Assembly: GCA_964577045.1 (NCBI GenBank)
Contig: CAZNWL010000001.1
Span: 1 to 34,471 of the forward strand
Reading direction: 5' to 3'
Length of the DNA stretch: 34,471 nt
Source of the DNA: an uncultured Planctomycetia bacterium
GTDB lineage: Bacteria; Omnitrophota; Gorgyraeia; Duberdicusellales; 4484-171
Every line of letters begins with the position of its first letter. The stretch's first letter is position 1. The position numbers were made by a program, and so were the translations under genes. The notes beneath the pieces are model-generated. The model was not told where the DNA came from, did not search any database, and was given only the letters and a program-made list of their open reading frames with translations. Positions 7,648 to 34,471 of this stretch are shown here, in pieces.

Positions 7648-8194
7648 ATTTAAGAAGTTAGAAATCCCCGAGGTTATTTTAATTAAGCCTAAGTTAATCA
7701 GCGATGACCGCGGCTTCTTTATGGAGGCTTACAAGGAAGATGATTTCGCCAAGTTCGGGATTAAGGATAAGTTCGTCCAGGAAAACCACTCTAAATCTTT
7801 CGCTAAAGGGGTAATCCGCGGCCTGCATTTTCAGAAAAAACCCATGGAACAGGCTAAACTAGTGAGAGTAGTTTCCGGAAGCATCATGGATGTAGCTGTA
7901 GATATCAGGCGCGGCTCAAAGACTTTTGGCAAATGGGTTTCCAGCTTACTTTCTACCAAAAACCGGGCCATGCTTTATATACCCGAGGGGTTTGCTCATG
8001 GCTTCTGCACTTTGGAAGAGAACACCGAAGTTCTTTACAGCTGCAGCAATGAATATTCTCCAGCCCATGACCGGGGGATTATTTGGTCGGACAATTTTAT
8101 TAATATCCATTGGCCGGTGCTCGAGCCAATTTTATCCGAGCGGGATAAAAAATGGCCTACTTTGCATGAGGCGGATTTAGGGTTTAATTATTAG
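7637..8194 (+). CDS. rfbC: dTDP-4-dehydrorhamnose 3,5-epimerase
   Basis: Cupin-fold RmlC motifs are present (DDRGFF.E, RGLHFQ, KLVRV.SG...[15 protein letters not shown]). The 185-aa length fits. Confidence 0.9.
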
Positions 8195-8208
8195 TCTATT
8201 TATTAAAT

Positions 8209-8277
8209 GATTACAGCGATTAGGGAAAGATTACAGTGATTGTTAATCTGCGTAATCTATATTAAATCTCTGTAATC
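8209..8277. repeat. Four-copy 13-mer array: GATTACAGCGATT (8209-8221), GATTACAGTGATT (8229-8241), and inverted copies AATCTGCGTAATC (8245-8257) and AATCTCTGTAATC (8265-8277)
   Basis: Read directly from the rfbC-rfbB spacer. Same-orientation copies are 20 nt apart. The outer pair is complementary at 12/13 positions and the inner pair at 10/13, so the copies could form nested hairpins. Confidence 0.55.
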
Positions 8278-8302
8278 AATTTCCGAGAGGAACGAAGAAA
8301 CT

Positions 8303-10363
8303 ATGGCTGAAAATATTTTAGTAACCGGAGGCTGCGGTTTTATCGGCTCGCATTTTGTGCGTTACCTTTTGCAAAACAAAGGCAACTGCAACGTATTTAA
8401 TTTGGATAATTTAAGCTACGCCGGAGACGAGGCCCGTTTAAAAGATATCGCTAAAAATAAAAACTATCATTTCGTCAAAGCAGACCTGCGCAATATCGCT
8501 GATATCGAAGAAGTTTTTTCCCATCCCATAGACACGGTTGTGCATTTGGCGGCCGAAAGCCACGTAGACAATTCCATAAAAGACCCTTTTGTTTTTGAAG
8601 AAGTGAATGTCCGGGGCGCGCTTAACCTTTTATCTTGTACCCATAAATATAAGGTAAAGAAATTTGTTCATATCAGCTGCTACGATGAAACTACGAGAGC
8701 TTTAACCATAAAGGGGTTTAAAACCTATAAAGAACTTCGAAAAGGAGATTTAGTTTTTTCTTTGAATCCTCATACGAAAGAGATAGAACTGAAACCAATA
8801 GAGAAAGTTATTATACAAAAATATAAAGGTTCCATGATTCATTTTAATAACAGGAGGATAGATTTGCTCGTAACTCCTAATCATAATATGTTTATTCTTA
8901 ATAGCGCTAGGAAATTAATTAATGAACCAGCTTGGAAGTCGTGCAAGCGCAGCATTTTTTATATGCCTCGGGGGTGCTGGAAAGGTATAGAAAACGAGTC
9001 TTTCTACGTCAAAAGCTATGGGCGAGTAAATACCAATGATTTATTTTATATTCTAGGTATTTTCATAGGGGATGGTTTTACTGCTTATCAGGAAAAAATT
9101 TCTGAGACAATAACCGGATTGTCGCGAAAAAGTTATCTATTGAAAGCAAGAGATAAAATTAGTGGACGGTTCAAATCAATAGTTAGACAAGGGAGTTATA
9201 AGAGCATAAATCGTGGTTATCGCATATTTTTTGATATTCCAGAAAATGATGCGTGCCGGCCGAAAGTAGAAAGAGCTTTATCGCGAATGGGAATTAAATA
9301 TCACGCCCATAAGGGTAAGGCTGGAACCCATTTATATTTTACATCGAGAGCATTTATGAAATTTTTCAATCAATGTGGCCAAGGAGCGGTTAACAAACAT
9401 ATCCCCCACTGGGTTTTGGCTTATTCACAGGAATACTTAAAATATTTGTTTGAAGGGTTGATGGATTCAGATGGAAGCAAAAATCGTATTTATTTTACAG
9501 TTTCACCAATGTTAGTTTCTAATATTGTTGAACTTTCTATGAAATTAGGTTTAAAGCCCAACATTAATAAACGATACTGTATATCTTATATTCGTTCTAG
9601 AAAGATCGAAGGCGAATCTTATTATATTTCCTTTGGGGAGACAGAAAAATCAATCTCTAGGAATCGGATTAGGGAAGTTAATTATGCTGGCGACATTTGG
9701 TGTTTAAAAGTTAAAGATAATAAAAATTTTATTGTTGAGAGGAACGGAAAAATTGATTTTTGTGGAAATACCGATGAAGTCTACGGCGAAATCAAGCAAG
9801 GTAAATTTACCGAAGAGTCTCCTTTGGCGCCGAATTCGCCCTATTCGGCAAGCAAAGCTGCGGCGGATTTTTTGGTCAGGGCTTATGTGCGCACCTATAA
9901 TTTCCCGGCTGTCATTATCCGTCCTTCCAACAATTACGGCCCCTGGCAATATCCCGAAAAGTTTATTCCTGTGGCTATTTCCAGCGTTCTTTCCGATAAG
10001 AAAATCCCGGTTTACGCTCAAGGCTTGAATTGCCGCGAATGGCTTTATGTCACTGACTGCGCCAAAGGTATTGCTTTAGTGATGGATAAGGGCGTAATCG
10101 GCGAAGTTTACAATTTAGGTTCGGGTATGGAAAAAAGAAATATCGATGTAGCCAGAGAAATTCTTAAACTGCTGGGAAAAGAAGAAAACTTCATTGATTT
10201 TGTCACTGACCGGCCAGGGCACGATTTTCGTTACTCGCTGGATTCGTCAAAGATTAAGGCTTTAGGCTTTAGCCCCCAGATGGATTTTCAAACTGGAATC
10301 AAGAATACCGTGGAATGGTATAAAGAAAAAAGGACTTGGACCGAGGAAAAGTTGGGTATTTAG
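8303..10363 (+). CDS. rfbB: dTDP-glucose 4,6-dehydratase precursor interrupted by an in-frame intein (exteins 8303-8677 and 9770-10363)
   Basis: The N-extein carries VTGGCGFIGSH, HLAAESHVD and ends FVHIS. The C-extein resumes with TDEVYGE and carries SPYSASK, RPSNNYGP.Q.PEK and DRPGHD.RY. The joined exteins total 322 aa, a normal RmlB length. Confidence 0.9.
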   Translation: MAENILVTGGCGFIGSHFVRYLLQNKGNCNVFNLDNLSYAGDEARLKDIAKNKNYHFVKADLRNIADIEEVFSHPIDTVVHLAAESHVDNSIKDPFVFEEVNVRGALNLLSCTHKYKVKKFVHISCYDETTRALTIKGFKTYKELRKGDLVFSLNPHTKEIELKPIEKVIIQKYKGSMIHFNNRRIDLLVTPNHNMFILNSARKLINEPAWKSCKRSIFYMPRGCWKGIENESFYVKSYGRVNTNDLFYILGIFIGDGFTAYQEKISETITGLSRKSYLLKARDKISGRFKSIVRQGSYKSINRGYRIFFDIPENDACRPKVERALSRMGIKYHAHKGKAGTHLYFTSRAFMKFFNQCGQGAVNKHIPHWVLAYSQEYLKYLFEGLMDSDGSKNRIYFTVSPMLVSNIVELSMKLGLKPNINKRYCISYIRSRKIEGESYYISFGETEKSISRNRIREVNYAGDIWCLKVKDNKNFIVERNGKIDFCGNTDEVYGEIKQGKFTEESPLAPNSPYSASKAAADFLVRAYVRTYNFPAVIIRPSNNYGPWQYPEKFIPVAISSVLSDKKIPVYAQGLNCREWLYVTDCAKGIALVMDKGVIGEVYNLGSGMEKRNIDVAREILKLLGKEENFIDFVTDRPGHDFRYSLDSSKIKALGFSPQMDFQTGIKNTVEWYKEKRTWTEEKLGI
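8678..9769 (+). mobile_element. Intein (364 aa) with a LAGLIDADG homing-endonuclease domain, inserted in rfbB
   Basis: It starts with Cys (CYDETTRALT) and has a TxxH block (LLVTPNH). The two dodecapeptide motifs are LGIFIGDGF and LFEGLMDSDGS. It ends IVERNGKIDFCGN, followed by Thr at +1. The insert is AT-rich: I counted 19/60 GC at 8821-8880 versus 30/60 at 9841-9900. Confidence 0.85.
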
Positions 10364-16112: not shown

Positions 16113-18083
16113 ATGAATGATAAGAAAATAAAAGTAGGTTTAGTGCAAATCGGCGATAAATTCGGAGAGCAGTATTACCTTCCTTATTCTATCGCCACTT
16201 TGCAGGCTTATGCTCAAAGCTACCTGAAAAACCCGGAGAGTTTTAGTTTTCTCTTACCTATATATAAGCGCTTAAGCCTTAATGAGGCAGTGAGAGAGCT
16301 TCAACCCAGCCAGATTATCTTTTTCAGCGCCTATGTCTGGAATTACGCTTTGAGTTTGGCTATTGCTAAAAAGATTAAACAAAATAATCCGGAAACCATA
16401 ATAGTTTTCGGCGGGCCGCAGATTCCCGAAGAAGTTAAAGCCTTAGAGTTTTTCTTGCGGGAAAACCCCTTTGTGGATTTGACAGTTTACGGAGAAGGGG
16501 AGATCCCGGTTTTAAAGATTTTAGAAAACTTTAAAACTAAAGATTGGAAGAACGTTCCTTCCGTTGGCTTTATCGGCCCCCAGGATAAGTTTAGCTATAA
16601 CCAAAAAATAGAGCGCATTAGCAAGCTCGACCAGATTCCTTCGGCTTATTTAAGCGGAGTTTTTGAGCCTTTGCTTAAGGCTAACCCCAATGAAGAGTGG
16701 TCTGCGCTTTTAGAGACCAACCGCGGCTGCCCGTATGCTTGCAGTTACTGCTATTGGGGGAAAAAAGAGCGCAGTAAAGTTTATCAGTTTGACTGCGAAA
16801 GAGTGTTTAAGGAAATTGACTGGTTCAGCCGCCATAAAATCCAGTTTGTTTTCTGCTGCGACGCTAATTTCGGGCTGTTCAAGCGCGATTTAGATATTGC
16901 TTTGAAAGTTTCCCAGAATAAAAATAAATACGGCTATCCTCAAGGTTTTTCCGTGCAGAATACCAAGAATTCAAGCGCCGATATTTTTAATCTGCAAAAA
17001 GTTTTAACGGAAAATGGCTTACAGCGCGGAGTAAATCTCGCCCTGCAGTCAGTTAATCCCCAGACTTTAAAAAGCATAAACCGCAATAATATCCCGGCGG
17101 CAATGTATAAAGAACTGCAAACTATGTTTTCTAAGGAGAATATCCCGACCTTCAGCGACATTATCATCGGCTTGCCCGAAGAAACTTATGAAAGCTTTAC
17201 CGAGGGTGTTTCCGAGATAATTGCCAGCGGCCAGCATAACCGCATTCAATTTATTAACCTGGCGATTTTAGAAAACTCCCAGATGGCCGAGAAAGCTTAT
17301 CAGGAAAAATATGGTTTAGCGGCCAAAGAAATAAAGAGCATCGCTCATCATACCAGCCTCAATGAGGATTTAGAAGTCAGCGATACGCAAAAGCTGGTGG
17401 TGGCTACCAAAGCTATGCCGGCAAAAGATTGGGTAAGAACGCGGGTATTTTCCTGGATGGTTTCCTTGTTATATTTCAATAAGTTATTGCAGATTCCATT
17501 TTTAGTTTTAAATAAGCTTTCTAATGCGAGCGCTAAAGAGTTGGCCGAGGCTTTTATAGATGAGAAAAAATATCCGATGATTACCCGCGTGGTGGATTTT
17601 TTCAGGGAAAAAGCCAAAGCCATGCAAGCCGGCGGAAATGAATTCGTGGCTGCGCCTGAATACCTGAATATCTGGTGGCCGGCAGACGAATATATGTTTA
17701 TCAAACTTTGCTTGGAAAACTTTGATGAGTTTTATCGGGCTTGCGGCCAGCTGCTGCGTGAGTTTATTGCCGAGAAAAAAATAGAGTTTGCGGACGCGCT
17801 TTTAGTTGAAAGCCTGGCTTTAAATAGAGCTTTGATTAAACTGCCCGGAGAGAATCAGGATTTAGAAATAAACTGCGCTTATAATCTTTATGATTTTTAT
17901 CAAAGCCTTTTAAAAAACGAGGTTTTGCCTTTGAGAAAAGTAAGCTCTAAATATCTTGCGCTACGCAGCCAGAGCCAATGGGATTTAGCCGATTGGTTAA
18001 GAGAAGTGGTCTGGTATGGCACAAAGCGCGGGGCTTACCTTTATGAGTGTAGAGCCAGTAAAATAACAGAAGTGGCGGTTTAA
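16113..18083 (+). CDS. B12-binding-domain radical SAM enzyme (class B), 656 aa with a long C-terminal extension
   Basis: It has an N-terminal Rossmann-like cobalamin-binding-type domain (IIFFSAYVWN...IIVFGGPQ). The CxxxCxxC motif is NRGCPYACSYCYW (Cys codons at 16728-16751). Confidence 0.8.
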   Translation: MNDKKIKVGLVQIGDKFGEQYYLPYSIATLQAYAQSYLKNPESFSFLLPIYKRLSLNEAVRELQPSQIIFFSAYVWNYALSLAIAKKIKQNNPETIIVFGGPQIPEEVKALEFFLRENPFVDLTVYGEGEIPVLKILENFKTKDWKNVPSVGFIGPQDKFSYNQKIERISKLDQIPSAYLSGVFEPLLKANPNEEWSALLETNRGCPYACSYCYWGKKERSKVYQFDCERVFKEIDWFSRHKIQFVFCCDANFGLFKRDLDIALKVSQNKNKYGYPQGFSVQNTKNSSADIFNLQKVLTENGLQRGVNLALQSVNPQTLKSINRNNIPAAMYKELQTMFSKENIPTFSDIIIGLPEETYESFTEGVSEIIASGQHNRIQFINLAILENSQMAEKAYQEKYGLAAKEIKSIAHHTSLNEDLEVSDTQKLVVATKAMPAKDWVRTRVFSWMVSLLYFNKLLQIPFLVLNKLSNASAKELAEAFIDEKKYPMITRVVDFFREKAKAMQAGGNEFVAAPEYLNIWWPADEYMFIKLCLENFDEFYRACGQLLREFIAEKKIEFADALLVESLALNRALIKLPGENQDLEINCAYNLYDFYQSLLKNEVLPLRKVSSKYLALRSQSQWDLADWLREVVWYGTKRGAYLYECRASKITEVAV

Positions 18084-19184: not shown

Positions 19185-20495
19185 ATGGTTAAGGTTGGAA
19201 TAATTATACCTAGTTGGCACTATTGGGTGAATCCCTGCCGGATTCAGCCGATATATGAGATGTATTTTGCTACGCTCATTGCAGCGCGCTTTAAAAAAAG
19301 CGAGGTTGAGGTTGACATTATTGACACTCGCGGCATCCGCAAAGACCAGCAGATTTACCATATCCCCGAAAGGGATCTTTACCTCTATTGGATAGCCAAA
19401 ACCGGCGACTATTCCAGAATCGCGGAGCTGGTCAAAGAAATAAAAGCCAAATACCCGCAAACTAAGCACGCTGCCGGCGGAACGCACATTGATATCTTCG
19501 GCGAAAAGTGCTCAAGAGATTTTGACGCGCTGGTAATTGGCCCGGGAGAAGAGTCGTTTAGCGCGATTATCAAGGATGTCCAGAAAGGCAGCCTGAAAAA
19601 ACTCTATCAGTCCGACTATAAAGATGTGCATTATGCGGATTATCCGTTTATCAAGCGGCATTTTTTGCCGGAGGCGGCAATAGTGAACAACCTTTTGTTT
19701 GAAAAATACGGCGCAAATATCAGGGCTACCTGCGTGCTTTTCTCGCGCGGCTGCAGTTTCCGCTGCCGCTACTGTGTTTACAATGTGCCGGGAAAAGTGC
19801 AGATGAGAAGGCCAGAAGCTATCACCGAAGAAATAGAATATTTGAAGCGAGACTATAAAGTAGAAGCGATTAATTTAAAGGATGAGATTTGCATTCCCGT
19901 AACCAGAGATGTAGCTTTACCTTATTTAGAAGCGATTAAGAAAGCCCGCGTTTTGTGGCGCGGCCAAACCACGGTTTTAGGGGTTACCGAAGAAAAAATC
20001 GCTTTGGCTAAGGAGTCAGGGTGCATGGAACTGGCTACTGGCGTAGAAAGCGTGTCGCAGCAGGTTTTGGATATCATTGATAAGAAGATTACCACCGAAG
20101 ACGTGCGCAATTTTATCCGGCTGTGTAAAAAGTATGCTATCAAGGTCAAGATGTGTTTGGTTTTTGGTCTTCCCGGTGAGCCGCAGACTATTGTTGAGGA
20201 TACCAAAAGGTTTATAGAGGAGGCAAAGCCCGATTATATCAGCCTTTCTGGCCTTGACCCTTTACCCGGCTCGGATATTTACGCCAACAGCGCCTATTAT
20301 GGCATCAAAAACATCGACACTAACTGGGAAAAACACGCGCATTTATTATACCGTTTTTCTGATTACGAAGAAGTGGGTTTACCGTTTGAATACGAGAAAG
20401 CCAACAAATGGGGCAAAACCTTCTCCCGTGAGGAGATAATCTCCAACATCCGCCAAACCCAAACCTATTTCCGTGAAAAACAGATGACGTATTAG
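19185..20495 (+). CDS. B12-binding-domain radical SAM enzyme (class B), 436 aa
   Basis: It has an N-terminal B12-binding-like domain. The CxxxCxxC motif is SRGCSFRCRYCVY (Cys codons at 19752-19775). An AAGGAG RBS lies at 19168-19173. Confidence 0.8.
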   Translation: MVKVGIIIPSWHYWVNPCRIQPIYEMYFATLIAARFKKSEVEVDIIDTRGIRKDQQIYHIPERDLYLYWIAKTGDYSRIAELVKEIKAKYPQTKHAAGGTHIDIFGEKCSRDFDALVIGPGEESFSAIIKDVQKGSLKKLYQSDYKDVHYADYPFIKRHFLPEAAIVNNLLFEKYGANIRATCVLFSRGCSFRCRYCVYNVPGKVQMRRPEAITEEIEYLKRDYKVEAINLKDEICIPVTRDVALPYLEAIKKARVLWRGQTTVLGVTEEKIALAKESGCMELATGVESVSQQVLDIIDKKITTEDVRNFIRLCKKYAIKVKMCLVFGLPGEPQTIVEDTKRFIEEAKPDYISLSGLDPLPGSDIYANSAYYGIKNIDTNWEKHAHLLYRFSDYEEVGLPFEYEKANKWGKTFSREEIISNIRQTQTYFREKQMTY

Positions 20496-23312: not shown

Positions 23313-24569
23313 ATGGCTAAAAAAATTATTGATAACATTAGGTTTATAAAGCGGGACCTGTCCCCAAAAATGAAGATTCCGTTTGGCACGATTACAGTGA
23401 GCGAGAAGTCAAGGCAGCTGATTAACGCGGCTTTGGATGCAAACCGCCTTTCTTCGGGTAAATACGTGCGCGAGTTTGAAGAGAAGTTTGCCGCGCTGGT
23501 CGGGGTAAAAGAAGCCGTGGCAGTGGCCAGCGGCACTGATGCTTTGGCTTTGGCCTTGGCTGTGCTTTATGATTTCGGCGCCAGAAAAAACGATGAAGTA
23601 ATTATTCCGGCTTTGTCTTTTGTGGCTACGGGTAATGCGGTGCTGCAAGCCGGGTTTAAGCCGGTTTTCGTGGATGTGGATTTAAAAACTTTAAACATCA
23701 TCCCGGAAAAAATAGAAGCGGCAATCAGCGCGAAAACTCGGGCTATTCTTCCGGTACATTTGATGGGAAAGCCCGCGGCTATGGAGGCGATAAACCGCAT
23801 CGCTAAAAAGCGCAAGCTCTATGTGATTGAAGACGCGGCTGAAGCCCATGGCGCAGAATATAAAGGTAAGCGCGCCGGAAGCCTGGCTGATATGGGAGCT
23901 TTCAGCCTTTATGTGGCGCATATTATTACTACTGCCGAAGGCGGGATAGTCACTACTGATAATTCTGCATTCGCCGAAATCTTAAGGTCTTTGCGTTCAC
24001 ACGGCCGGGCTTGTAAATGCAGGAGCTGTGTGTTAAATACTGCCTCCAGTTTTTGCGACAAAAGATTCAAGCAGGGGAAAAATAAAGATATCCGCTTTAT
24101 CTTTGAGCGCATTGGTTTTTCCTGCAAAATGAATGAGCTGGAAGCAGCTATCGGCATCGGCAATTTAGACAACTATCAGCAAATTCTGGATAAAAGAAGG
24201 GCGAATTTGCTTTATTTAATCAATAAGTTTAAAGAGTTTCGGCCATATTTAACCACTATCTGCGAAGAGGCCGGCGAAAAAATCGGGCCGCATGCGTTTC
24301 CTTTTATCGTGGGTAAAAAGGCGAAGTTCAGCCGCGAAGAATTAAGCGGATTTTTAGAAAAGAGAGGAGTGGATACCCGCACTTTGTTTTCCTCAATCCC
24401 TACGCAATGCGCGGGATTTAAATTTTTAGGGCATAAGTTGGGGGATTTTCCTAATGCCGAATATATCGGAGAAAACGGCATACATATCGGGGTGCATCAG
24501 GATTTAAATAAGGGGCACATGGAATATTTTATTAACTTGATTCACGAATTTTTAAAAGCCAATGCCTAA
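23313..24569 (+). CDS. DegT-fold PMP-dependent NDP-4-keto-6-deoxy-sugar 3-dehydratase candidate (E1/RfbH/ColD-like)
   Basis: GAFSLYVAHIITTAEGG aligns residue for residue with GAFSFFPSKNLGAFGDGG of the upstream DegT. This places His203 (23919-23921) where the PLP lysine sits. A Cys cluster CKCRSCVLNTASSFCDKRF follows (24012-24056). Confidence 0.6.
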   Translation: MAKKIIDNIRFIKRDLSPKMKIPFGTITVSEKSRQLINAALDANRLSSGKYVREFEEKFAALVGVKEAVAVASGTDALALALAVLYDFGARKNDEVIIPALSFVATGNAVLQAGFKPVFVDVDLKTLNIIPEKIEAAISAKTRAILPVHLMGKPAAMEAINRIAKKRKLYVIEDAAEAHGAEYKGKRAGSLADMGAFSLYVAHIITTAEGGIVTTDNSAFAEILRSLRSHGRACKCRSCVLNTASSFCDKRFKQGKNKDIRFIFERIGFSCKMNELEAAIGIGNLDNYQQILDKRRANLLYLINKFKEFRPYLTTICEEAGEKIGPHAFPFIVGKKAKFSREELSGFLEKRGVDTRTLFSSIPTQCAGFKFLGHKLGDFPNAEYIGENGIHIGVHQDLNKGHMEYFINLIHEFLKANA

Positions 24570-26952
24570 AACTAAACACGCGATTATTCTCGGCGCCGGA
24601 GCAGTGGGCCTGGTTTCTGCCTGGAAGCTTTTGGATGAAGGCTTTAAGGTGGACATCTATGAAAAAGATAGCCAGGTTGGCGGAATGTGCAAGACCTGGA
24701 AGTGGAAAGAGTTTTTAGTGGATTGCGGCCCGCATATTTATCATACCCCCGATGAAAAATTAGCCGGATTCTGGGAGAAAGAGTTCGGCGACTTATTCGT
24801 GAAAGGGGATTTCTGGTGCAAAAACGTCAAAGGCGATAATTTTAACCAATACTGGGATTACCCGCTTTCCTGGGAAAGCATTTCCCGTTATCCTAAAAAG
24901 CTAAAAGACAAGGTTTTGTCTGAACTGCATAATATCAGCTTTGAAAAAAGAACGCAGGCGAAAAACTATACCGAATATATGGAGGCGCAAGTCGGCCAGA
25001 CTTTACGGGAGATGTTTTTTAAGCAGTTCCCGGAAAAAATCTGGGGCATTTCCACTGACACTATGGCTTGCGAATGGGCGCCTAAGCGCATTGAAGTGCG
25101 CCAGAAGGTCACGCCTTTTTACCACCGGCAGTGGAATGCCGTGGGTAAATTCGGAACCGGCTGTATTTTTGAGCGGATAAAAGAAAAAATTGAAAAATCC
25201 GGCGGGAAAATCCACCTTAACTGCGAAGTGAAAGGCTTTGAAACCAAAGGAAACTTGATTACCGCTGTCAAATTAACCGGAGGAAAAATCAGGAAAGTGG
25301 AACCCGAAGATGTGATAATTTCCAGCTTGCCGATTACTCTGCTGGCTAAATTTTTGGGCTATAACAGCAAGCTGAAGTTCAGGGCTTTGCGCACAGTTTA
25401 TTTAGCCTACGATAAGCCTATGATTCTGCCTCAAGGCATAGACTGGCTTTATTATGATTCGCCAAAAACTTATTTCAGCCGGATTACCGAGCCGAAAAAA
25501 CTTTCCAAAGCTTTAGCGCCTAAAAATAAAACTTACCTTAGCGCAGAAATAACCTGCGCCCAAGGCGATAAGATTTATCAAATGGATAAAAATAAACTGA
25601 TTAAAGAAACAGCCCGACAAGTGGAACTGGTGGGTTTGATAGAAGCAGGCCAGTTAAAAGAGGCAACAGTGCATACCGAAGATTATGTCTATCCTATTCA
25701 AGGCCGGGGCTATCAAGAGGAGCTTTCTAAAACCCGCGCGGTAATTACTAAATACCAACAGCTTTATTCTCTGGGCACCGGCGGAGAGTTCCACTATGCT
25801 GATATTCAGATAATCTTTCATAAAGTTTTTGACTTGGTAGCCGTACTTTGCGGGAAAGATTCAAAAATAAGCCAGACTATTCGTAAAACCCCGCGCTGCC
25901 AGCTGAATACAAGTATTTTTATCGGAAAGCGCGAGATAAGCGAAGCAAAGCCGGCTTATATCATTGCCGAAGCCGGCTTAAACCATAACCAGAGTCTAAC
26001 TATTGCCAAAAAGCTGATTGATGCGGCGAAAGAATCCGGAGCAGACAGCATCAAGTTTCAAAGTTTTAAGCCGGGCAGCCGCGTCTCTAAAAAAGTAAAA
26101 GCCGCGCGTTATGCCGAAACTATTATCGGCACCGAAGAAACTATCGCTGATATGTTTGACCGCTTGAGCTTAAGCTACGCCGACCAGAAAGAGCTTTTTA
26201 ACTACGCCCGTAAAACCGGCATAGAAATATTTTCCACTCCTTTTGATTTTGAAAGCGCTGACTTCTTAAACAGCTTAGGAGTGAATGTTTTTAAAATCGC
26301 TTCTATGGATTTGGTGAACCTGCCTTTGATTAAACATATCGCCGGCTTCGGCAAACCCATGATTCTTTCTACGGGCATGTCCACTTTAGGCCAGATCGAA
26401 GAAGCTTTAGAGACTATCCGCCAGCAGGGAAATCCCAACGTGGCTTTGCTGCATTGTAACTCGGCTTATCCGGCTGCGCCCGAAGAGATGAATTTAAAGG
26501 TGATAGATACTTTGAAGAGCTGTTTTAAAGTTCCGGTCGGGCTTTCTGACCATACTTTCGGCTTGGCAGTTTCCCATACGGCGCTGGCCTTAGGCGCGAA
26601 TTTAATCGAGCGGCATTTTACTTTGGATAGGGCAATGGAAGGCCCTGACCATATCTTATCTTCTACGCCCGAAGAGTTAGCAGAGCTGGTTTCTCTGGCT
26701 AAAAAAATCCCGCTGATTTTAGGCGACGGAATAAAACGCATCCAGCCTAATGAGTATGATACTTTGAATATGCAGCGAAAAAGCCTTTACGCCGCGCGCA
26801 ATATTAAAAAAGGCGCGGTGATTACTTCGGATATGATTGTCATTAAAGGCCCGGGAGGCGGTTTGTTACCGCGCTATTTAGAAGTAGTTACCGGAAGAGT
26901 GGCGCGCGCGGATATTGAAGAGGACCATCCGATTACCTGGGATGTGATTTAA
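24562..26952 (+). CDS. Fusion protein: N-terminal FAD-dependent oxidoreductase (amine-oxidase / UDP-galactopyranose-mutase-like fold, aa 1 to ~435) plus C-terminal NeuB-type ulosonic-acid synthase with a SAF domain (aa ~451-796, nt ~25912-26949)
   Basis: The N-terminus carries the dinucleotide motif ILGAGAVGL...DIYEKDSQVGG. The C-terminus carries YIIAEAGLNHNQS, KFQSF, FSTPFD, KIASMD, STGMS, LLHCNSAYPA, LSDHT and a SAF-like tail. It is one continuous 796-aa ORF. Confidence 0.8.
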   Translation: MPKTKHAIILGAGAVGLVSAWKLLDEGFKVDIYEKDSQVGGMCKTWKWKEFLVDCGPHIYHTPDEKLAGFWEKEFGDLFVKGDFWCKNVKGDNFNQYWDYPLSWESISRYPKKLKDKVLSELHNISFEKRTQAKNYTEYMEAQVGQTLREMFFKQFPEKIWGISTDTMACEWAPKRIEVRQKVTPFYHRQWNAVGKFGTGCIFERIKEKIEKSGGKIHLNCEVKGFETKGNLITAVKLTGGKIRKVEPEDVIISSLPITLLAKFLGYNSKLKFRALRTVYLAYDKPMILPQGIDWLYYDSPKTYFSRITEPKKLSKALAPKNKTYLSAEITCAQGDKIYQMDKNKLIKETARQVELVGLIEAGQLKEATVHTEDYVYPIQGRGYQEELSKTRAVITKYQQLYSLGTGGEFHYADIQIIFHKVFDLVAVLCGKDSKISQTIRKTPRCQLNTSIFIGKREISEAKPAYIIAEAGLNHNQSLTIAKKLIDAAKESGADSIKFQSFKPGSRVSKKVKAARYAETIIGTEETIADMFDRLSLSYADQKELFNYARKTGIEIFSTPFDFESADFLNSLGVNVFKIASMDLVNLPLIKHIAGFGKPMILSTGMSTLGQIEEALETIRQQGNPNVALLHCNSAYPAAPEEMNLKVIDTLKSCFKVPVGLSDHTFGLAVSHTALALGANLIERHFTLDRAMEGPDHILSSTPEELAELVSLAKKIPLILGDGIKRIQPNEYDTLNMQRKSLYAARNIKKGAVITSDMIVIKGPGGGLLPRYLEVVTGRVARADIEEDHPITWDVI

Positions 26953-28722: not shown

Positions 28723-30530
28723 TGAAGCACTTTGGGTTTATTAAAAAATACTGGTGGTTGTTTGTGCTGATGATTAGCGCGGGATTAGTGGCTTCCCTCT
28801 TAGAAGGCCTGGGCGTTACTTTGATTATTCCGGTAGTAAAGGGGCCGCAAGTTTCAGACCTATCGCAAATACCTGCACCCTTAAACCAGCTGGTTAAACT
28901 TTTTATCGGTCTGGATTTAAGCCAGCGGCTTAAACTGGCAGCCTTGCTTTTGATCGCCATCTCTTTAGTGAAAGGCATCATGCTTTATATTAACGAGGTA
29001 TCGTCAGGTAAGATGATGGTTATTTCTGAAAAGCATTTCCGCATGCTTTGCCTGCGCCAGCTGATGCGCACTGGCATGAGTTATTTTACCAAGCAGAAAG
29101 GCTCGGATATACATACTATCTGCGACTTCTACGTAAGAAATTTCGGCTCCTTAGTCAATATCATTGGTTTAGATTTACCCAAAGTTTTTCAGGTGATTGT
29201 TCTTTTCGTCATCATGCTTTTACTTTCTTGGAAGATAACCTTTCTTTCGGTGGGGCTTTTGGCCATCGCTTCTTTGATTTTGCGCTTTTTAGCGGTGCGC
29301 ATTCAAAAGATGGGTAAAAAATTCGCCGAGGCCAATAAAACTATCAACGCCGCTATTTTTGACGCTATTTTAGGGATGAAAGTCATCCGGATTTTCAACC
29401 GCGAAAAGGAAACCATTAATAATTTCGAAAAAGAGCAGGACAATTTAAACAGCATCCATATGAAGATGGTGGGAATCCGTTCTATTGTCAAACCTTTGTT
29501 TGAATTTATCGGTTCAGCCTGCCTGGGGATTATTATGATTGTTTGGTCTTATTTAGTCTTACGTTCAAGCAACATGGGATTAGAATTTCTTTTTGCTTTT
29601 ATCCTTATCTTTTACCGGATTTCCACGCCGGTAATGTACATTAACCATTCTAGGGTGGCAATTATGGGAGATGTGGCTTCATATAAGGAAGTTTTTAATT
29701 TTCTCAAGAGTGAGGACAAGAATTATTTAGCTAACGGCAAAAAAGAGTTTAAAGGCTTAAAAGATTCTTTGGAGTTTAAAGGAGTAAGTTTTAACTATGA
29801 ACCGGGTTTGCCCTTAGTGTTGAAAGACGCCTCTTTCACCATCAAACGGGGGATGAAAGTAGGCTTTGTCGGCGCATCCGGAGCCGGCAAATCCACGATT
29901 ACCGAGTTGCTTTTACGTTTTTATGACCCGCAAAAGGGAGAAATTGTTGTGGATGGGGTTAATTTGAAAGAGTTCAGAGTAGAGTCCTGGCGCAAACATA
30001 TCGGCATAGTTTCACAGGAGATATTTTTGTTTAATGATACGGTCAGGAATAATATTGCTTACGCTAAAGACGAAGCAACCAGCCAGGGCGTGGAGTTTGC
30101 CGCAAAAATGGCCCATGCCGAGCAGTTCATTAAGGAACTGCCCGCGGGTTTTGATACTTTAATCGGCGACCGGGGAGTACTTTTATCCGGCGGTCAGCGC
30201 CAGAGATTGGCCATTGCCCGGGCAATTATCAATAAGCCCGACATCCTGATTTTTGACGAGGCCACTTCGGCCTTGGATTCAGAGTCGGAAAAAATAGTGC
30301 AGGAGGCTTTAGATGAAGTCGGCCAGGGCCGGACAGTGATTGCCATTGCCCACCGGCTTTCTACGGTGTTTGACGCTGACCTGATTTTAGTTATTGATAA
30401 AGGAAAGATTATGGAGCAGGGAACGCACGAACAGTTAAAAACCAGGAGCGAAATTTATAAGCGGCTGTTATCCATGCAGGGGTATTTCGACGAAACTTTT
30501 AAGGCCGAAGAACCAGAAATAGTGGCTTAA
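28716..30530 (+). CDS. ABC exporter with fused transmembrane and ATPase domains (MsbA/PglK type)
   Basis: A hydrophobic N-terminal half is followed by Walker A (GASGAGKST), the ABC signature (LSGGQRQR), Walker B (ILIFDEATSALD) and an H-loop (IAHRLST). Confidence 0.85.
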   Translation: MVMKHFGFIKKYWWLFVLMISAGLVASLLEGLGVTLIIPVVKGPQVSDLSQIPAPLNQLVKLFIGLDLSQRLKLAALLLIAISLVKGIMLYINEVSSGKMMVISEKHFRMLCLRQLMRTGMSYFTKQKGSDIHTICDFYVRNFGSLVNIIGLDLPKVFQVIVLFVIMLLLSWKITFLSVGLLAIASLILRFLAVRIQKMGKKFAEANKTINAAIFDAILGMKVIRIFNREKETINNFEKEQDNLNSIHMKMVGIRSIVKPLFEFIGSACLGIIMIVWSYLVLRSSNMGLEFLFAFILIFYRISTPVMYINHSRVAIMGDVASYKEVFNFLKSEDKNYLANGKKEFKGLKDSLEFKGVSFNYEPGLPLVLKDASFTIKRGMKVGFVGASGAGKSTITELLLRFYDPQKGEIVVDGVNLKEFRVESWRKHIGIVSQEIFLFNDTVRNNIAYAKDEATSQGVEFAAKMAHAEQFIKELPAGFDTLIGDRGVLLSGGQRQRLAIARAIINKPDILIFDEATSALDSESEKIVQEALDEVGQGRTVIAIAHRLSTVFDADLILVIDKGKIMEQGTHEQLKTRSEIYKRLLSMQGYFDETFKAEEPEIVA

Positions 30531-30533
30531 GCT

Positions 30534-31832
30534 ATGGAAAATAAGCAGAAAGCGCGGATTTTGATGTATTGCGGAAACGGCTATTCTTTCAGCGAATACT
30601 TTAAGCCGCTTATTGAGGAATTGGCTGATGATTGTGAGATAGAGCTGCTTCAGGGCGACTATCATCTTGGCCAGACAACCAAAGGGTTAATCCAAGAATT
30701 AACCGCCAAAAATAACTTTGCTTACCAGATTATACCGGTATTTACCTGGAACAGGTCAGTTTTAGAATATCACCGTAGCATGGCGCAATTAACAAACAAC
30801 TTAAAGGATAAACCCTTTGATTTATTCGTAGTCAGCAGTGATTCCAGTTTAACTGACCGCTATTTAGTTGATTTAGCCAAGTCTTTAGGGGCTAAAGTGG
30901 TCGTGATTTATGCCAGCGTATTTTTTGTGAAACTTTTTAATCTTTATAGAAAGCTTATAGGAGTTGATAAAAAATCCTATCTGGAAAAAGCTAAAGACAA
31001 AGTAGCGACAGTTAAAAATATGAAGCAAAGGAAGGTTTCGTTTTTAAATTATTTCTGGTGGCGGGTTAAATGGTTAAAAGAAAAAATAGCTAAGGACTTT
31101 AAAATTTTTATGAATTACTATATCCTGCCCTATATTTTTTCAAGGAGAACCTTTCCTCGGAATAAATATGATACCTTTAGCCATGTTTCTGGTCGCGCAG
31201 ACACATTTATTTGTTATAATTTTAGGGAAGCGGATGCGATAAGAAAAGTAGTTATTCCGGCTAAAGATGTGCGTTTGGCAAAACATCCGGCTGTTTTATA
31301 TTGCCGCAGCCCTAAAGAGGCAACCCGCAAACTGCTATTGCTTTTGGGGGATCAGGTTGACGAATTACGTGATGACCAGATTAGTTTTTGGGTTGAGGTT
31401 ATAAAAGAAGCAGTTAAGGCGGAAGGTTTAAATGAGGTTCATTTTCGTTTTCATCCCCGTACAGATAAAAATCTTCCTCAACCTAAGAAATTAATAGCTT
31501 CTGTGGCAAAGCTTAATTTAAAGACAGAGATAATTGATGCCAATACAGTGCCTTTAGTCCAAATCTTAGGTGATTATCTCGGTGTAATTGGCGTACTTTC
31601 CGGCTCCTTACGTACAGCCAGGGCTGTATCCAAAGGTTTTGTTATCGGGTTGCTGGATGCTTGTGGGAATTTTCCTGATGAAGATTGGATGTTAGGAGAT
31701 CCCGAAGGCATTATTTGGATTCGTAATGGCCAAAAGATACAAGCCGAGCATTTTGCTGTGCCGCCGCTTTACGGTGAGGATAGGCCGAAGGTATCGGAGA
31801 TACTAAAAGAATTAGTATGCAGTCAACGATAA
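30534..31832 (+). CDS. Hypothetical protein, 432 aa; possibly a two-Rossmann-domain (GT-B-like) surface-carbohydrate transferase
   Basis: It is a long ORF in the operon frame context. By eye it shows alternating beta-alpha character in both halves, with no diagnostic motif. Its position between the exporter and a cytidylyltransferase is the only functional hint. Confidence 0.3.
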   Translation: MENKQKARILMYCGNGYSFSEYFKPLIEELADDCEIELLQGDYHLGQTTKGLIQELTAKNNFAYQIIPVFTWNRSVLEYHRSMAQLTNNLKDKPFDLFVVSSDSSLTDRYLVDLAKSLGAKVVVIYASVFFVKLFNLYRKLIGVDKKSYLEKAKDKVATVKNMKQRKVSFLNYFWWRVKWLKEKIAKDFKIFMNYYILPYIFSRRTFPRNKYDTFSHVSGRADTFICYNFREADAIRKVVIPAKDVRLAKHPAVLYCRSPKEATRKLLLLLGDQVDELRDDQISFWVEVIKEAVKAEGLNEVHFRFHPRTDKNLPQPKKLIASVAKLNLKTEIIDANTVPLVQILGDYLGVIGVLSGSLRTARAVSKGFVIGLLDACGNFPDEDWMLGDPEGIIWIRNGQKIQAEHFAVPPLYGEDRPKVSEILKELVCSQR

Positions 31833-32617
31833 GAAAAGGAAAAATCGCCGCGATTATTCAAGCCCGGATGGGCTCAACCCGCTTGCCGGGAAAAATCCTG
31901 ATGGAGGTAAACTATCGTCCGCTATTGGATTATATGGTGGAGCGGGTAAAAAGGAGCAAATATATCAAGCAGGTGATTATCGCTACCACTGTTTCTCACC
32001 AAGACCAGCCGATAGTTGACTGGTGCAAAGCTAATCAGGTGGAATTCTGCCGCGGCGATGAGGAAGATGTTTTGGCCCGTTATTACTATGCTGCCAAGGA
32101 GTTTAAAGTTTCCGTAATCGTGAGAGTTACTTCAGACTGCCCGTTAATGGATCCGGAAGTTATTGATAAAACCATTGAGGCTTTTCTTGGCGATTCGCAT
32201 CTCGATTTTGCCTCAAGTACTACGCCGCTGCCTTGTTTATATCCTGACGGCATGGACGTGGATGTTTTTAATTTTAACCTTTTAGAGAAAACTCATTACG
32301 AAGCCAAACTTCCTTCGGAAAGAGAGCATGTAACCTTTTATATGTGGAAGACTGGAAAATTTAAAGTGAAAAGAATCGACCCTAAAGAGGATTTGTCTTC
32401 TTATCGTTTTTGCATTGACTATCCTCAAGATTTTACCGTGATACAGGAAGTGTTGACTAAACTTTACCCAAAAAATCCTAAGTTTTCCGTGTATGAATTG
32501 ATAGATTTTATGAAAGCTAACCCCCGGCTTTTAGCCTTGCAGAAAGGCATTAAGCGCAATGCCGGCTGGCAAAGGGCTTTGGATAAAGACTTAAAATATT
32601 TGGAGCAAAACAAATGA
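31817..32617 (+). CDS. SpsF-like cytidylyltransferase (CMP-ulosonic-acid synthetase family)
   Basis: KIAAIIQARMGSTRLPGK.L, the VIIATT motif and RVTSDCPL are typical of the SpsF/NeuA-like cytidylyltransferase family. Confidence 0.75.
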   Translation: MQSTIRKGKIAAIIQARMGSTRLPGKILMEVNYRPLLDYMVERVKRSKYIKQVIIATTVSHQDQPIVDWCKANQVEFCRGDEEDVLARYYYAAKEFKVSVIVRVTSDCPLMDPEVIDKTIEAFLGDSHLDFASSTTPLPCLYPDGMDVDVFNFNLLEKTHYEAKLPSEREHVTFYMWKTGKFKVKRIDPKEDLSSYRFCIDYPQDFTVIQEVLTKLYPKNPKFSVYELIDFMKANPRLLALQKGIKRNAGWQRALDKDLKYLEQNK

Positions 32618-34471
32618 AACCGCCAAAAAAGAGTTTAGCTTTACAGGAAAAAGGAAAAAAGTTTATTCCCGGCTTAACCCAGCTTCTTTCTAAAAGGCCT
32701 GACCAGTTTGCTCCCGGGCTTTGGCCGGGATATTTTGAAAAAGCCAAAGGCATAGAAGTCTGGGATTTGGACGGAAACCGTTATCTGGATATGAGTATCA
32801 GCGGCATCGGAGCAGTAATTTTAGGTTATTGTGATCCTGATGTGGATAAGGCAGTTAGAGAAGTAATCAAGAAAGGCAATTTTTCTTCGCTCAATTGCCC
32901 GGAAGAAGTCGAACTTGCAGAGTTACTTTGCGAAATCCATCCCTGGGCGAAGCTTGTGCGTTATGGCCGCGGCGGCGGAGAAGTTATGGCTATTGCCGTG
33001 CGCATTGCCCGCGCCTTTACTGGCCGCGATAAAATAGCTTTTTGTTATGACGAAACAACAGAAATACTCACAAGAGATGGTTTTAAAAGAATCAAAGATA
33101 TAGATAAACAAGAAGTAGTAGCTACTCTCAATCCCACTACAAATCAATTAGAATACAAACAGATTGAAAGAAAGCTGAGGTATCGCTTTTCAGGGAAAAT
33201 GATACATTTCAAAGGGCAAAGGGTTGATTTAATGGTGACTCCTGAACATAAAATATATAGGAAGTTTCGCTTAAGAAAGGGTTATCATTTTAAATTAGTG
33301 GAAGCCAGAAGTGCTTTAAGATCTAAAGTAATGACTCAAATGACTTCTGTATGTGAGTGGAAAGGTGAAGTTAAGAAAGAGATTGTTATTCCTCAAATAG
33401 TTGGTCAAACTCGGCCAACAAAGGGCATTTGTTCATTTTCCGCGAAAGCTTTTGTTAGATTTATGGGTTGGTACTTATCCGAGGGTTGTTGCGTGGAACA
33501 GAAGAGAAGGAGATATGAAGTAAGTATAGCTCAAGATAGAAAGAATTTCAATAAGAGCAGGGAAATATTCTCAACGATTAGAAAATTGGGATTTGCTCCT
33601 TACCGGAACGGGCATCATATTTGTTTTAGCTCTAAAGAGTTGGTGCAATATTTAAAACAATTTGGAAAGTGCAAAGATAAGTATATTCCAGATTGGATAA
33701 AAAATTTGTCCACTAACTATATTTCTATTTTTGTAGACGCTATGATAAAAGGAGATGGCACTTTTGAGAAAGGTAAAATACGCAAATTCTATTCTACCTC
33801 TAAAAGATTGATAGATGGTATGCAAGAGATATTATTGAAAATTGGTTATTCTACCACAGTTTCAGAGCACACCAACATTGGATTTTCTAAAGATAAAGTA
33901 TATCATTTATATATAAGTAAGGAGAATATTTTAGGAAGTTGGCCAGAAGAGGAATATTACGATGGTTACGTATATTGCGTAACTGTGCCTAACCATATCG
34001 TTCTCGTGAGACGAAATGGAAAATTAGCCTGGTCAGGAAATTGCGGCTACCACGGTTGGTGTGACTGGTATTTAGCCGCTAATTTAAGTTCGGATAAGTC
34101 GCTGGAGGGGCACCTGTTACCGGGATTAGAGCCACGGGGTGTCCCCAGAGGCTTATTGGGGACGGCTTTGCCGTTTCGTTACAACAATATAGAAGAGTTG
34201 GAAAAGATTGTTCGGAATACTAAAGGCAATTTGGCAGCAATCGTGATGGAGCCGATTAGAAACGACCCCCCCCAGAAAGGATTTTTAGAGGCCGTGCGTA
34301 AAATTGCCGATAAAACCGGCGCGGTTTTAATTTTTGATGAGGTATCTTGCGGCTTTCGGATGAATTCCGGCGGCGCGCATCTTTTATTCGGCGTTACGCC
34401 GGATATCGCTGCTTTTGCTAAAGGCATGAGCAACGGTTATCCGATGGGAGCAGTCATAGGCAGAGAAAAGG
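32614..34471 (+). CDS. Class-III (glutamate-1-semialdehyde aminomutase-like) PLP aminotransferase precursor interrupted by an intein; the 3' end lies outside the window. It is not in the supplied ORF track.
   Basis: I translated this frame by hand and it is open from the ATG at 32614 (ATGA overlap with the upstream stop) to nt 34471. The N-extein carries GIEVWDLDGNRYLD and ends RAFTGRDKIAF. The C-extein resumes CGYHGW and carries AAIVMEPI, LIFDEV..GFR and the PLP lysine motif AFAKGMSNGYP. Confidence 0.85.
   Translation, partial: MKPPKKSLALQEKGKKFIPGLTQLLSKRPDQFAPGLWPGYFEKAKGIEVWDLDGNRYLDMSISGIGAVILGYCDPDVDKAVREVIKKGNFSSLNCPEEVELAELLCEIHPWAKLVRYGRGGGEVMAIAVRIARAFTGRDKIAFCYDETTEILTRDGFKRIKDIDKQEVVATLNPTTNQLEYKQIERKLRYRFSGKMIHFKGQRVDLMVTPEHKIYRKFRLRKGYHFKLVEARSALRSKVMTQMTSVCEWKGEVKKEIVIPQIVGQTRPTKGICSFSAKAFVRFMGWYLSEGCCVEQKRRRYEVSIAQDRKNFNKSREIFSTIRKLGFAPYRNGHHICFSSKELVQYLKQFGKCKDKYIPDWIKNLSTNYISIFVDAMIKGDGTFEKGKIRKFYSTSKRLIDGMQEILLKIGYSTTVSEHTNIGFSKDKVYHLYISKENILGSWPEEEYYDGYVYCVTVPNHIVLVRRNGKLAWSGNCGYHGWCDWYLAANLSSDKSLEGHLLPGLEPRGVPRGLLGTALPFRYNNIEELEKIVRNTKGNLAAIVMEPIRNDPPQKGFLEAVRKIADKTGAVLIFDEVSCGFRMNSGGAHLLFGVTPDIAAFAKGMSNGYPMGAVIGREK
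33043..34041 (+). mobile_element. Intein (333 aa) with a LAGLIDADG homing-endonuclease domain, inserted in the class-III aminotransferase
   Basis: It starts CYDETTEILT and has a TxxH block (LMVTPEH). The dodecapeptide motifs are MGWYLSEGC and IFVDAMIKGDGT. It ends LVRRNGKLAWSGN, followed by Cys at +1. The insert is AT-rich: I counted 17/60 GC at 33241-33300 versus 38/60 at 32941-33000. Confidence 0.85.

Follow-up and report, generated by a model that had tools for sequence, protein, structure and literature searches.

What occupies the 3′ end of the 34,471-nucleotide contig CAZNWL010000001.1, an uncultured Omnitrophota assembly analysed here over its whole length (the window), where the listing of open reading frames (ORFs) shows only short ORFs after position 32617? 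The original prediction held that a class-III aminotransferase gene of the glutamate-1-semialdehyde aminomutase (GSAM) type begins at the ATG at 32614, runs off the contig, and is interrupted by an intein that is the second in the window. Taken as a whole, the locus is very probably best explained as the precursor of a GSAM-like aminotransferase that carries a self-splicing class-1-type intein with a LAGLIDADG endonuclease, an element that spread by homing.

The plus-strand frame from ATG 32614 to nucleotide 34471 comprises 619 codons and is stop-free on translation, as the original prediction had read it by hand, while the other five frames contain 22-49 stops over the same stretch. Given the base composition, the full stretch would stay open by chance with a probability of about 2e-20, and its A+T-rich 333-codon insert, taken alone, with one of about 2e-13. 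The window is a complete contig, so the partial aminotransferase precursor gene (32614..34471, plus strand, 3′ end missing) truly runs off it. The gene is indeed missing from the ORF listing, because that listing omits frames that run off an end and holds only short ORFs in this region. The TGA of the upstream cytidylyltransferase gene overlaps the ATG (ATGA), and a GGAG at 32602..32605 (plus strand), 9 nucleotides 5′ of the start, reads as a likely ribosome-binding site.

The gene caller of the Joint Genome Institute (JGI) also chose ATG 32614 as the start on a separate metagenome contig, L001 (JGI sample 3300022556; 4,355 nucleotides; gene 2505-4355). L001 equals window positions 30110-34464 with 0 mismatches and ends inside the C-extein. 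A naive annotation had been expected to miss or fragment the gene. The JGI caller found it, and the public homologues are annotated as aminotransferases; the part of the expectation that holds is that the homologues' annotation leaves the intein unmentioned.

Full-length intein-bearing homologues are 747-824 aa long, and from those of 760-790 aa about 153 C-terminal codons are expected to be missing here. The proposed extension of the contig toward the 3′ end did not succeed: a search for contigs encoding the upstream neighbour gave only the identical L001, which stops 7 nucleotides earlier, and a search for contigs encoding the window's ABC-transporter protein gave no match on record. The shared break suggests a systematic assembly break, for example from strain variation, a paralogue, or a drop in coverage. 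An assembly chimera or sequencing artefact would agree with a contig that ends inside a gene and with two contigs that stop at nearly the same place, but it has practically no probability, since the identical sequence lies on a separate JGI metagenome contig and about 20 other genomes or metagenomes have the same architecture and junctions.

The host protein is a class-III aminotransferase. Its N-extein (32614..33042, plus strand, aa 1-143, ending ...DKIAF) is delimited by family profiles, homologue alignment, and GSAM structure alignment, and its partial C-extein (34042..34471, plus strand, aa 477-619, starting CGYHGW at the equivalent of the gating-loop start) by the homologue and GSAM alignments. 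Joined, the 286 extein residues match Pfam Aminotran_3 (PF00202), the profile that marks class-III pyridoxal phosphate (PLP) aminotransferases, in one stretch (41-286 against profile positions 13-275 of 403; 9e-39; 133.7 bits against a cut-off of 30.5). They also give single-stretch matches to the NCBIfam models PRK06209 (1e-60) and GntE (5e-61) and to HemL-type models (1e-52 to 1e-56), which bears out the GSAM-like assignment. With the insert left in, the same aminotransferase models match in two pieces. Aligning the joined exteins to class-III aminotransferases, the check proposed for the original prediction, gave colinear alignments across the junction, including those to solved GSAM structures (~1e-41).

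The active-site segments of the exteins follow GSAM, in which the roles of these residues have been described (PMC7338781). GGGEVMA (32971-32991, plus strand, in the N-extein) lies where GSAM has its S-G-T-E-A interface-helix and cofactor-phosphate segment. FDEV (34330-34344, plus strand) contains the counterpart of GSAM Asp245, which binds the pyridine N, and FAKGMSNG (34414-34437, plus strand) contains the Schiff-base Lys. These two residues, D575 and K603, are invariant in the homologue alignment (A1) and align with GSAM Asp245 and Lys273. The exteins thus align with GSAM/HemL over their whole available length and keep the Y-H-G gating-loop start, the pyridine-N Asp, and the Schiff-base Lys. 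They differ in the junction motif, which is F-C-G-Y-H-G-W here and F-E-G-C-Y-H-G-H in GSAM, and in gene context, which is a glycan cluster with NeuB, cytidylyltransferase, DegT, and radical-SAM genes and not a tetrapyrrole one. True HemL was rejected as an identity both because of that context and because the scores lie far under the equivalog cut-offs (TIGR00713, 178.7 against 527 bits; PRK06209, 205 against 486 bits; both for a partial sequence). Judged from its sequence and surroundings, the gene is that of a glycan-pathway PLP-dependent class-III aminotransferase of the GSA-aminomutase-like subfamily. A search of the literature linking GSAM-like enzymes, cytidylyltransferases, and NeuB returned nothing useful on the aminotransferase substrate.

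The insert between the exteins spans 33043..34041 (plus strand; 333 codons; aa 144-476) and separates DKIAF from CGYHGW, with the boundaries that had been predicted. It starts with CYDETTEILT and ends with ...LAWSGN, followed by Cys. Motifs, profiles, a structural model, and homologue alignment describe it as an intein whose HINT splicing domain is split by a LAGLIDADG domain, and every block named in the original prediction (CYDETT, VTPEH, two LAGLIDADG motifs, and WSGN with Cys+1) is present. In the block numbering of PMC2807308, block A (CYDETTEILTRDG, 33043..33081, plus strand) opens with Cys1, the N-terminal nucleophile. Block B (RVDLMVTPEHKIYR, 33220..33261, plus strand) contains VTPEH, with Thr at B:7, His at B:10, and Ile in place of Trp at B:12; the T-x-x-H residues Thr66 and His69 are invariant in the intein alignment (A2). 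Block F (DGYVYCVTVPNHIVLV, 33961..34008, plus strand) includes YVYCVTVPNH, with His at F:13 and, at F:4, a Cys instead of the Asp of most inteins. Block G (NGKLAWSGN plus Cys+1, 34015..34044, plus strand) ends in the terminal Asn, preceded by Gly and not by His. With its precise in-frame insertion, its N-terminal nucleophile and T-x-x-H, and its terminal Asn followed by a residue of the Cys/Ser/Thr set, the insert has the sequence features that are expected of an intein.

The first LAGLIDADG motif (FVRFMGWYLSEGC, intein aa 137-149, 33451..33489, plus strand) forms a helix in the model (aa 134-147) that ends in the conserved acidic Glu147. The second (ISIFVDAMIKGDGT, intein aa 227-240, 33721..33762, plus strand) forms a model helix (aa 224-238) that ends in the invariant Asp238-Gly239. 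Pfam LAGLIDADG_3 (PF14528) matches at 38.6 bits against a cut-off of 22.5, and all NCBIfam matches of the insert are to models of intein-bearing archaeal proteins. The two helices with acidic ends and the family profile point to a LAGLIDADG endonuclease of the two-motif, monomeric kind.

A profile built from 19 related inserts reaches solved inteins in the PDB, with matches to PI-PkoII (6e-8), VMA inteins (1e-6), the AceL NrdHF intein, and the MJ0781/KlbA intein. An AlphaFold2 model of the intein, made from an alignment of related inserts, has a pLDDT of 93.8 and a pTM of 0.91. Its top Foldseek matches are all intein-endonucleases: TliVMA (2.5e-18, TM 0.66), PhoVMA, PI-PkoII, PI-SceI, and PI-PfuI. 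Free-standing LAGLIDADG enzymes (I-DmoI and the I-OnuI type), mini-inteins, Hedgehog autoprocessing domains, and bacterial intein-like (BIL) domains follow lower in the ranking. The model therefore predicts a HINT fold.

The insertion site is shared across a family of homologues. With the entire ORF as query, about 20 proteins (747-824 aa) matched at 99% query coverage and 41-72% identity, and hundreds of shorter homologues, about 438 aa long, matched in the exteins only. In alignment A1 the insert lies at the identical position in 19 homologues, between ...A-F and C/S-G-Y/F-H-G-W..., while the short homologues run continuously through ...AF-CGYHGW.... Hosts of the same-site intein include DPANN archaea, bacteria of the candidate phyla radiation (CPR), and one contig that IMG/VR classes as viral. 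The residue at +1 is Cys in 100/101 intein-free homologues, so the intein uses a native, conserved host residue as its +1 nucleophile.

The junction falls between Phe143 and the conserved Cys of F-C-G-Y-H-G-W, two residues before Tyr-His-Gly, which in the structure alignment corresponds to GSAM Tyr150-His151-Gly152. In GSAM the active-site gating loop starts with these residues, which also have a direct coupling to the catalytic intermediate (PMC7338781). An insertion of 333 residues at an active-site segment means that the precursor should be inactive until spliced, and the position is the kind expected of inteins, which as a rule sit in conserved functional sites. The original prediction was correct in placing the insertion in the conserved Y-H-G region; the exact site is between F and C of F-C-G-Y-H-G-W and not within a HemL-like G-C/S-YHG segment. 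In one 747-aa homologue an intein of the same family sits 10 residues further downstream (...R-G-Y-H-G-W-H-E-W-Y, intein, S-I-A-S-E-R...), and Arg replaces the usual +1 Cys; the gene family thus seems to have a second insertion site close to the usual one. Literature searches on inteins with glutamate-1-semialdehyde or aminotransferase found no description of an intein at this site, and the main text of a large intein survey (PMC4760082) contains no mention of aminotransferases.

Several points weigh against this account of a splicing, homing intein. The gene is truncated by the contig end, with its C-terminus inferred from homologues, and the NCBI contig and L001 both break within 7 nucleotides of each other inside it. 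Two canonical assisting residues are replaced, the penultimate His by Gly and the F:4 Asp by Cys. Pfam Intein_splicing (PF14890) scores 17.1 bits (E 0.005), under its gathering threshold of 35.8, so that of the intein profile search that had been proposed, the LAGLIDADG_3 match and the reach of the family profile to solved inteins bear out the prediction and the splicing-domain match does not. A single-sequence PDB search with the intein found nothing significant, which made profiles and structure prediction necessary.

Truncation and the non-canonical assisting residues would also suit a non-splicing domain or dead element that leaves the locus effectively a pseudogene. This alternative is very improbable. 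An unspliced protein, with an insert in its active site, would be inactive, yet the frame through the insert has stayed intact against a chance of about 2e-13. The exteins retain the invariant PLP residues, and every splice-junction residue is invariant over about 20 hosts, although extein identity among them has fallen to 34-70%.

The replaced residues are usual assisting residues and not obligatory ones. His G:6 and Asp F:4 are absent here, and His F:13 is present; the VYD of block F in PI-PkoII aligns with VYC in the window intein. The intein of the Bethlehem gp51 recombination directionality factor (RDF) has a penultimate Gly and splices fully, and mutation of that Gly to His slows its splicing (PMC5050341). 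Cys is the second commonest residue at F:4 among inteins (PMC4031507). Because these documented exceptions splice, neither Gly nor Cys F:4 argues against splicing of the window intein.

Cys F:4 is invariant in the 20 aminotransferase inteins, which raises the alternative that the intein splices while the block-F Cys is itself used or regulatory, either through a class-3-like branched intermediate or through a disulfide of Cys F:4 with Cys1 or Cys+1 that would make splicing redox-dependent. Residue frequencies that bear on this were computed over 126 full-length members of the wider intein clade. Cys1 is found in 100% of them, Cys F:4 in 83% (105/126), His F:13 in 81%, Gly G:6 in 96%, and Asn G:7 in 100%; the T-x-x-H residues are kept in 125-126/126, B:12 is Ile, Leu, or Met and never Trp, and the +1 residue is always C, S, or T. 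The prevalence of Cys F:4 is in keeping with a dedicated role, as are the Ser or Cys at G:5, which resemble the Thr in the WCT triplet of class 3, and the proximity of F:4 to both splice junctions in solved inteins (PMC2807308). On the other side, Cys1 is invariant (126/126) and B:12 is never Trp, so the class-3 signature does not apply, and F:4 is Asp in 11 members and Ser in 9, so Cys is not obligatory. Cys may also simply reflect its rank as the second most frequent residue at this position in inteins (PMC4031507).

A redox-active or catalytic block-F Cys is accordingly given a low probability; were the disulfide reading true, production of the aminotransferase would be conditional. Assignment to class 3 was rejected: as defined in PMC2807308, the class requires the WCT set (Trp B:12, Cys F:4, Thr G:5) and mostly lacks an N-terminal nucleophile, and the window intein has Ile, Cys, and Ser with an invariant Cys1. 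A special role for the conserved Cys F:4 is possible but unsupported, and class-1-type splicing from Cys1 is the preferred explanation.

The distribution of the intein points to mobility. Its G+C content is 34%, against 46-50% for the exteins. The nearest exteins, P0016 (85% identity) and P0017 (84%), have no intein, and the cluster that holds P0016, on JGI contig L004, matches the window in gene order. The neighbouring 432-aa protein, however, shows only 41% identity, so the P0016 lineage is not a very close one. Falkowbacteria alleles show the reverse pattern, with exteins 46-48% and inteins 70-71% identical to those of the window. Across pairs of intein-bearing proteins, the intein is more similar than the extein by at least 10 points in 58/190, and extein and intein identities correlate weakly (Spearman 0.21). 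In matches to genomes, a Micrarchaeota metagenome-assembled genome (MAG) and a Falkowbacteria MAG carry inteins at 69% identity.

This discordance between extein and intein identity points to horizontal spread, and the sequence comparisons indicate that the intein is mobile and has moved between very different hosts. Homing by the intein's own endonuclease is the inferred means, and the DNA that flanks both empty and occupied sites is well conserved. The contig that IMG/VR classes as viral (L005; IMGVR_UViG_3300033145_002563, 68.6 kb) has the same gene at 2536-4854 with the intein at the same site and 56% intein identity. The aminotransferase gene there is flanked by genes for a NUMOD3-motif protein, a family-2 glycosyltransferase, and a methyltransferase.

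Decay of the endonuclease is a frequent feature of inteins. The window intein could still splice while its endonuclease is inactive, with the element fixed and only vertically inherited in this lineage; a LAGLIDADG_3 match that covers the second motif region only would agree with this. Such decay is unlikely given that the LAGLIDADG helices and their acidic ends are kept in 19/19 aligned inteins, with Glu147 nearly invariant and Asp238-Gly239 invariant, and that the endonuclease domain is modelled with high confidence. The extein-intein discordance and the intein-free syntenic allele likewise argue for movement on an evolutionary timescale.

The proposed mechanism starts from the observed sequence, architecture, predicted fold, presence/absence pattern, and extein-intein discordance, and it extends to splicing, endonuclease activity, and the homing site, which we infer. 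The aminotransferase would be translated as a precursor with the 333-residue class-1-type intein in frame between Phe143 and the host Cys, in which state it could not be an active enzyme. After translation, Cys1 would form a thioester at the N-junction, and the N-extein would be transferred to Cys+1. The terminal Asn would then cyclise, probably with the help of the block-F His, since the penultimate residue is Gly. The joined exteins would yield a mature enzyme of about 439 aa. The LAGLIDADG endonuclease of the excised intein, intact in appearance, would presumably cut intein-free alleles at ...ATAGCTTT(T/C)-TGCGG(A/C/T)TA(C/T)CA(C/T)GG..., where the hyphen marks the junction, and spread the element by homing. 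Spread of this kind would account for the presence of the intein in very divergent hosts.

In both structure (Foldseek E 2.5e-18 to 2e-11, TM 0.6-0.67) and profile comparisons, the window intein matches TliVMA/PhoVMA, PI-PkoII, PI-PfuI, and PI-SceI best. Like it, they consist of a HINT domain interrupted by a two-motif LAGLIDADG endonuclease, with Cys1, T-x-x-H, a terminal Asn plus nucleophile, and a conserved functional site in the host. They are only 10-16% identical to it, and their hosts are replication or ATPase proteins, whereas the window host is a glycan-pathway PLP aminotransferase. The window intein also differs from them in Cys in place of Asp at F:4 and Gly in place of the penultimate His. 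At 333 aa, against 454-537 aa for PI-SceI and PI-PkoII, it is without an extra DNA-recognition region of the size found in those two.

Mycobacteriophage class-1 inteins offer a second comparison. The Bethlehem gp51 RDF intein shares Cys1 and the Gly before the terminal Asn (PMC5050341), and the association of these inteins with viruses resembles that of much of the clade to which the window inteins belong. Their hosts and insertion sites differ, and GenBank phage inteins are <30% identical to the window intein. Class 3 inteins such as MP-Be DnaB share Cys F:4 and a small hydroxyl residue at G:5, but the window intein keeps an invariant Cys1 and has Ile in place of Trp at B:12 and Ser in place of Thr at G:5.

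The description of the aminotransferase intein as the second in the window was accurate. A related intein of 364 aa (8678..9769, plus strand; aa 126-489; CYDETT...FCGN followed by T) interrupts an rfbB-like dTDP-glucose 4,6-dehydratase ORF (8303-10363, 686 aa). The two inteins are homologous over their full length (24% identity, E 4e-26) and share Cys F:4 and the penultimate Gly. Both start with CYDETT, end with ...GN, and interrupt a nucleotide-sugar enzyme; the rfbB intein lies directly before the conserved motif T-D-E-V-Y-G, which in RmlB belongs to the catalytic motif. They differ in host gene and site, in the +1 residue (Thr in rfbB, Cys in the aminotransferase), and in length (364 against 333 aa). 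A single glycan cluster thus carries a pair of related inteins, each inserted at an active-site segment. At only 24% identity the two are too divergent for a recent duplication from rfbB into the aminotransferase gene, and that reading was rejected.

An intein profile search found 379 relatives, and their hosts are varied. They include family-2 glycosyltransferases, epimerases/dehydratases, metallophosphoesterases, a carbamoyltransferase, PAPS reductase, C1 peptidases, and AAA ATPases, as well as ThyX, thymidylate synthase, dCTP deaminase, GTP cyclohydrolase I, DNA methylases, and RuvC. In IMG/VR contigs the clade is represented by at least 558 intein-coding stretches. Relatives with <30% identity interrupt terminase, methylase, and thymidylate synthase genes of GenBank phages, among them Lak megaphages.

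A broader proposal would make the window inteins representatives of a large unnamed clade with the signature Cys1...T-x-x-H...Cys(F:4)...His(F:13)...W-[S/C]-G-N. Such a clade would be very common in DPANN, in CPR, and on contigs classed by IMG/VR as viral, and would invade metabolic genes, those of glycan pathways among them, as readily as replication genes, and its near-universal Cys F:4 could make splicing redox-dependent or its route unusual. The full proposal is improbable; if it were true of Cys F:4, surface-glycan synthesis would be gated after translation.

The intein is known in kind and ordinary. What is new is the insertion site, for which the literature searched holds no description, while the sequences themselves were already public and unremarked. 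The site adds a PLP aminotransferase active-site segment to a list of intein insertion sites that, in the surveys consulted, is dominated by replication, recombination, and ATPase proteins (PMC4760082). For annotation, the consequence is practical: this gene and about 20 public homologues go by no other names than "aminotransferase class III" or "hypothetical", as proteins of about 770 aa, and the mature enzyme would be about 439 aa. The locus is also a clear case of one intein lineage common to bacteria, archaea, and putative viruses, and of two related inteins within one glycan gene cluster. At 333 aa the intein is compact, and with its natural Cys+1 and penultimate Gly it might be of interest in protein engineering, although its value is modest. 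Nothing here overturns current understanding; the finding is of moderate interest to intein specialists and useful for annotation.

The aminotransferase gene lies in a long, all-plus-strand nucleotide-sugar and nonulosonic-acid cluster. Its genes encode a NeuB fusion, DegT aminotransferases, B12/radical-SAM enzymes, epimerases/dehydratases, an ABC exporter, and a CTP_transf_3 cytidylyltransferase. The last of these, a CMP-type cytidylyltransferase, is encoded directly 5′ of the aminotransferase gene, and several aminotransferase homologues are fused to CTP_transf_3. The same neighbour genes are found again in a Falkowbacteria genome and on L004.

In the window, the genes for the 432-aa protein (30534-31832) and the 266-aa CTP_transf_3 cytidylyltransferase (31817-32617) are separate ORFs with a 16-nucleotide overlap, while their L004 counterparts are joined as one 697-aa protein (7911-10004). 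The difference could be a gene fusion, a fission, or a frameshift. The 432-aa protein has no Pfam match, and its 41% identity to the L004 counterpart compares with 85% for the adjacent aminotransferase exteins.

Further upstream, a 796-aa fusion (24562-26952) combines an amine-oxidase/UDP-galactopyranose-mutase-like flavoprotein domain with NeuB and SAF domains. L004 has the same flavoprotein-NeuB-SAF fusion (798 aa), an unusual domain combination for a nonulosonic-acid synthase. A bifunctional sulfate adenylyltransferase/APS kinase (3387-5276, 629 aa) is also encoded within the sugar cluster, which suggests sulfation of the cluster's glycan; among the named relatives of this enzyme, proteins of Omnitrophota MAGs come closest (66-70% identity). 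Two B12-binding radical-SAM proteins (16113-18083, 656 aa; 19185-20495, 436 aa) are possible C-methyltransferases of the sugar; genes of a similar kind flank the L004 aminotransferase gene.

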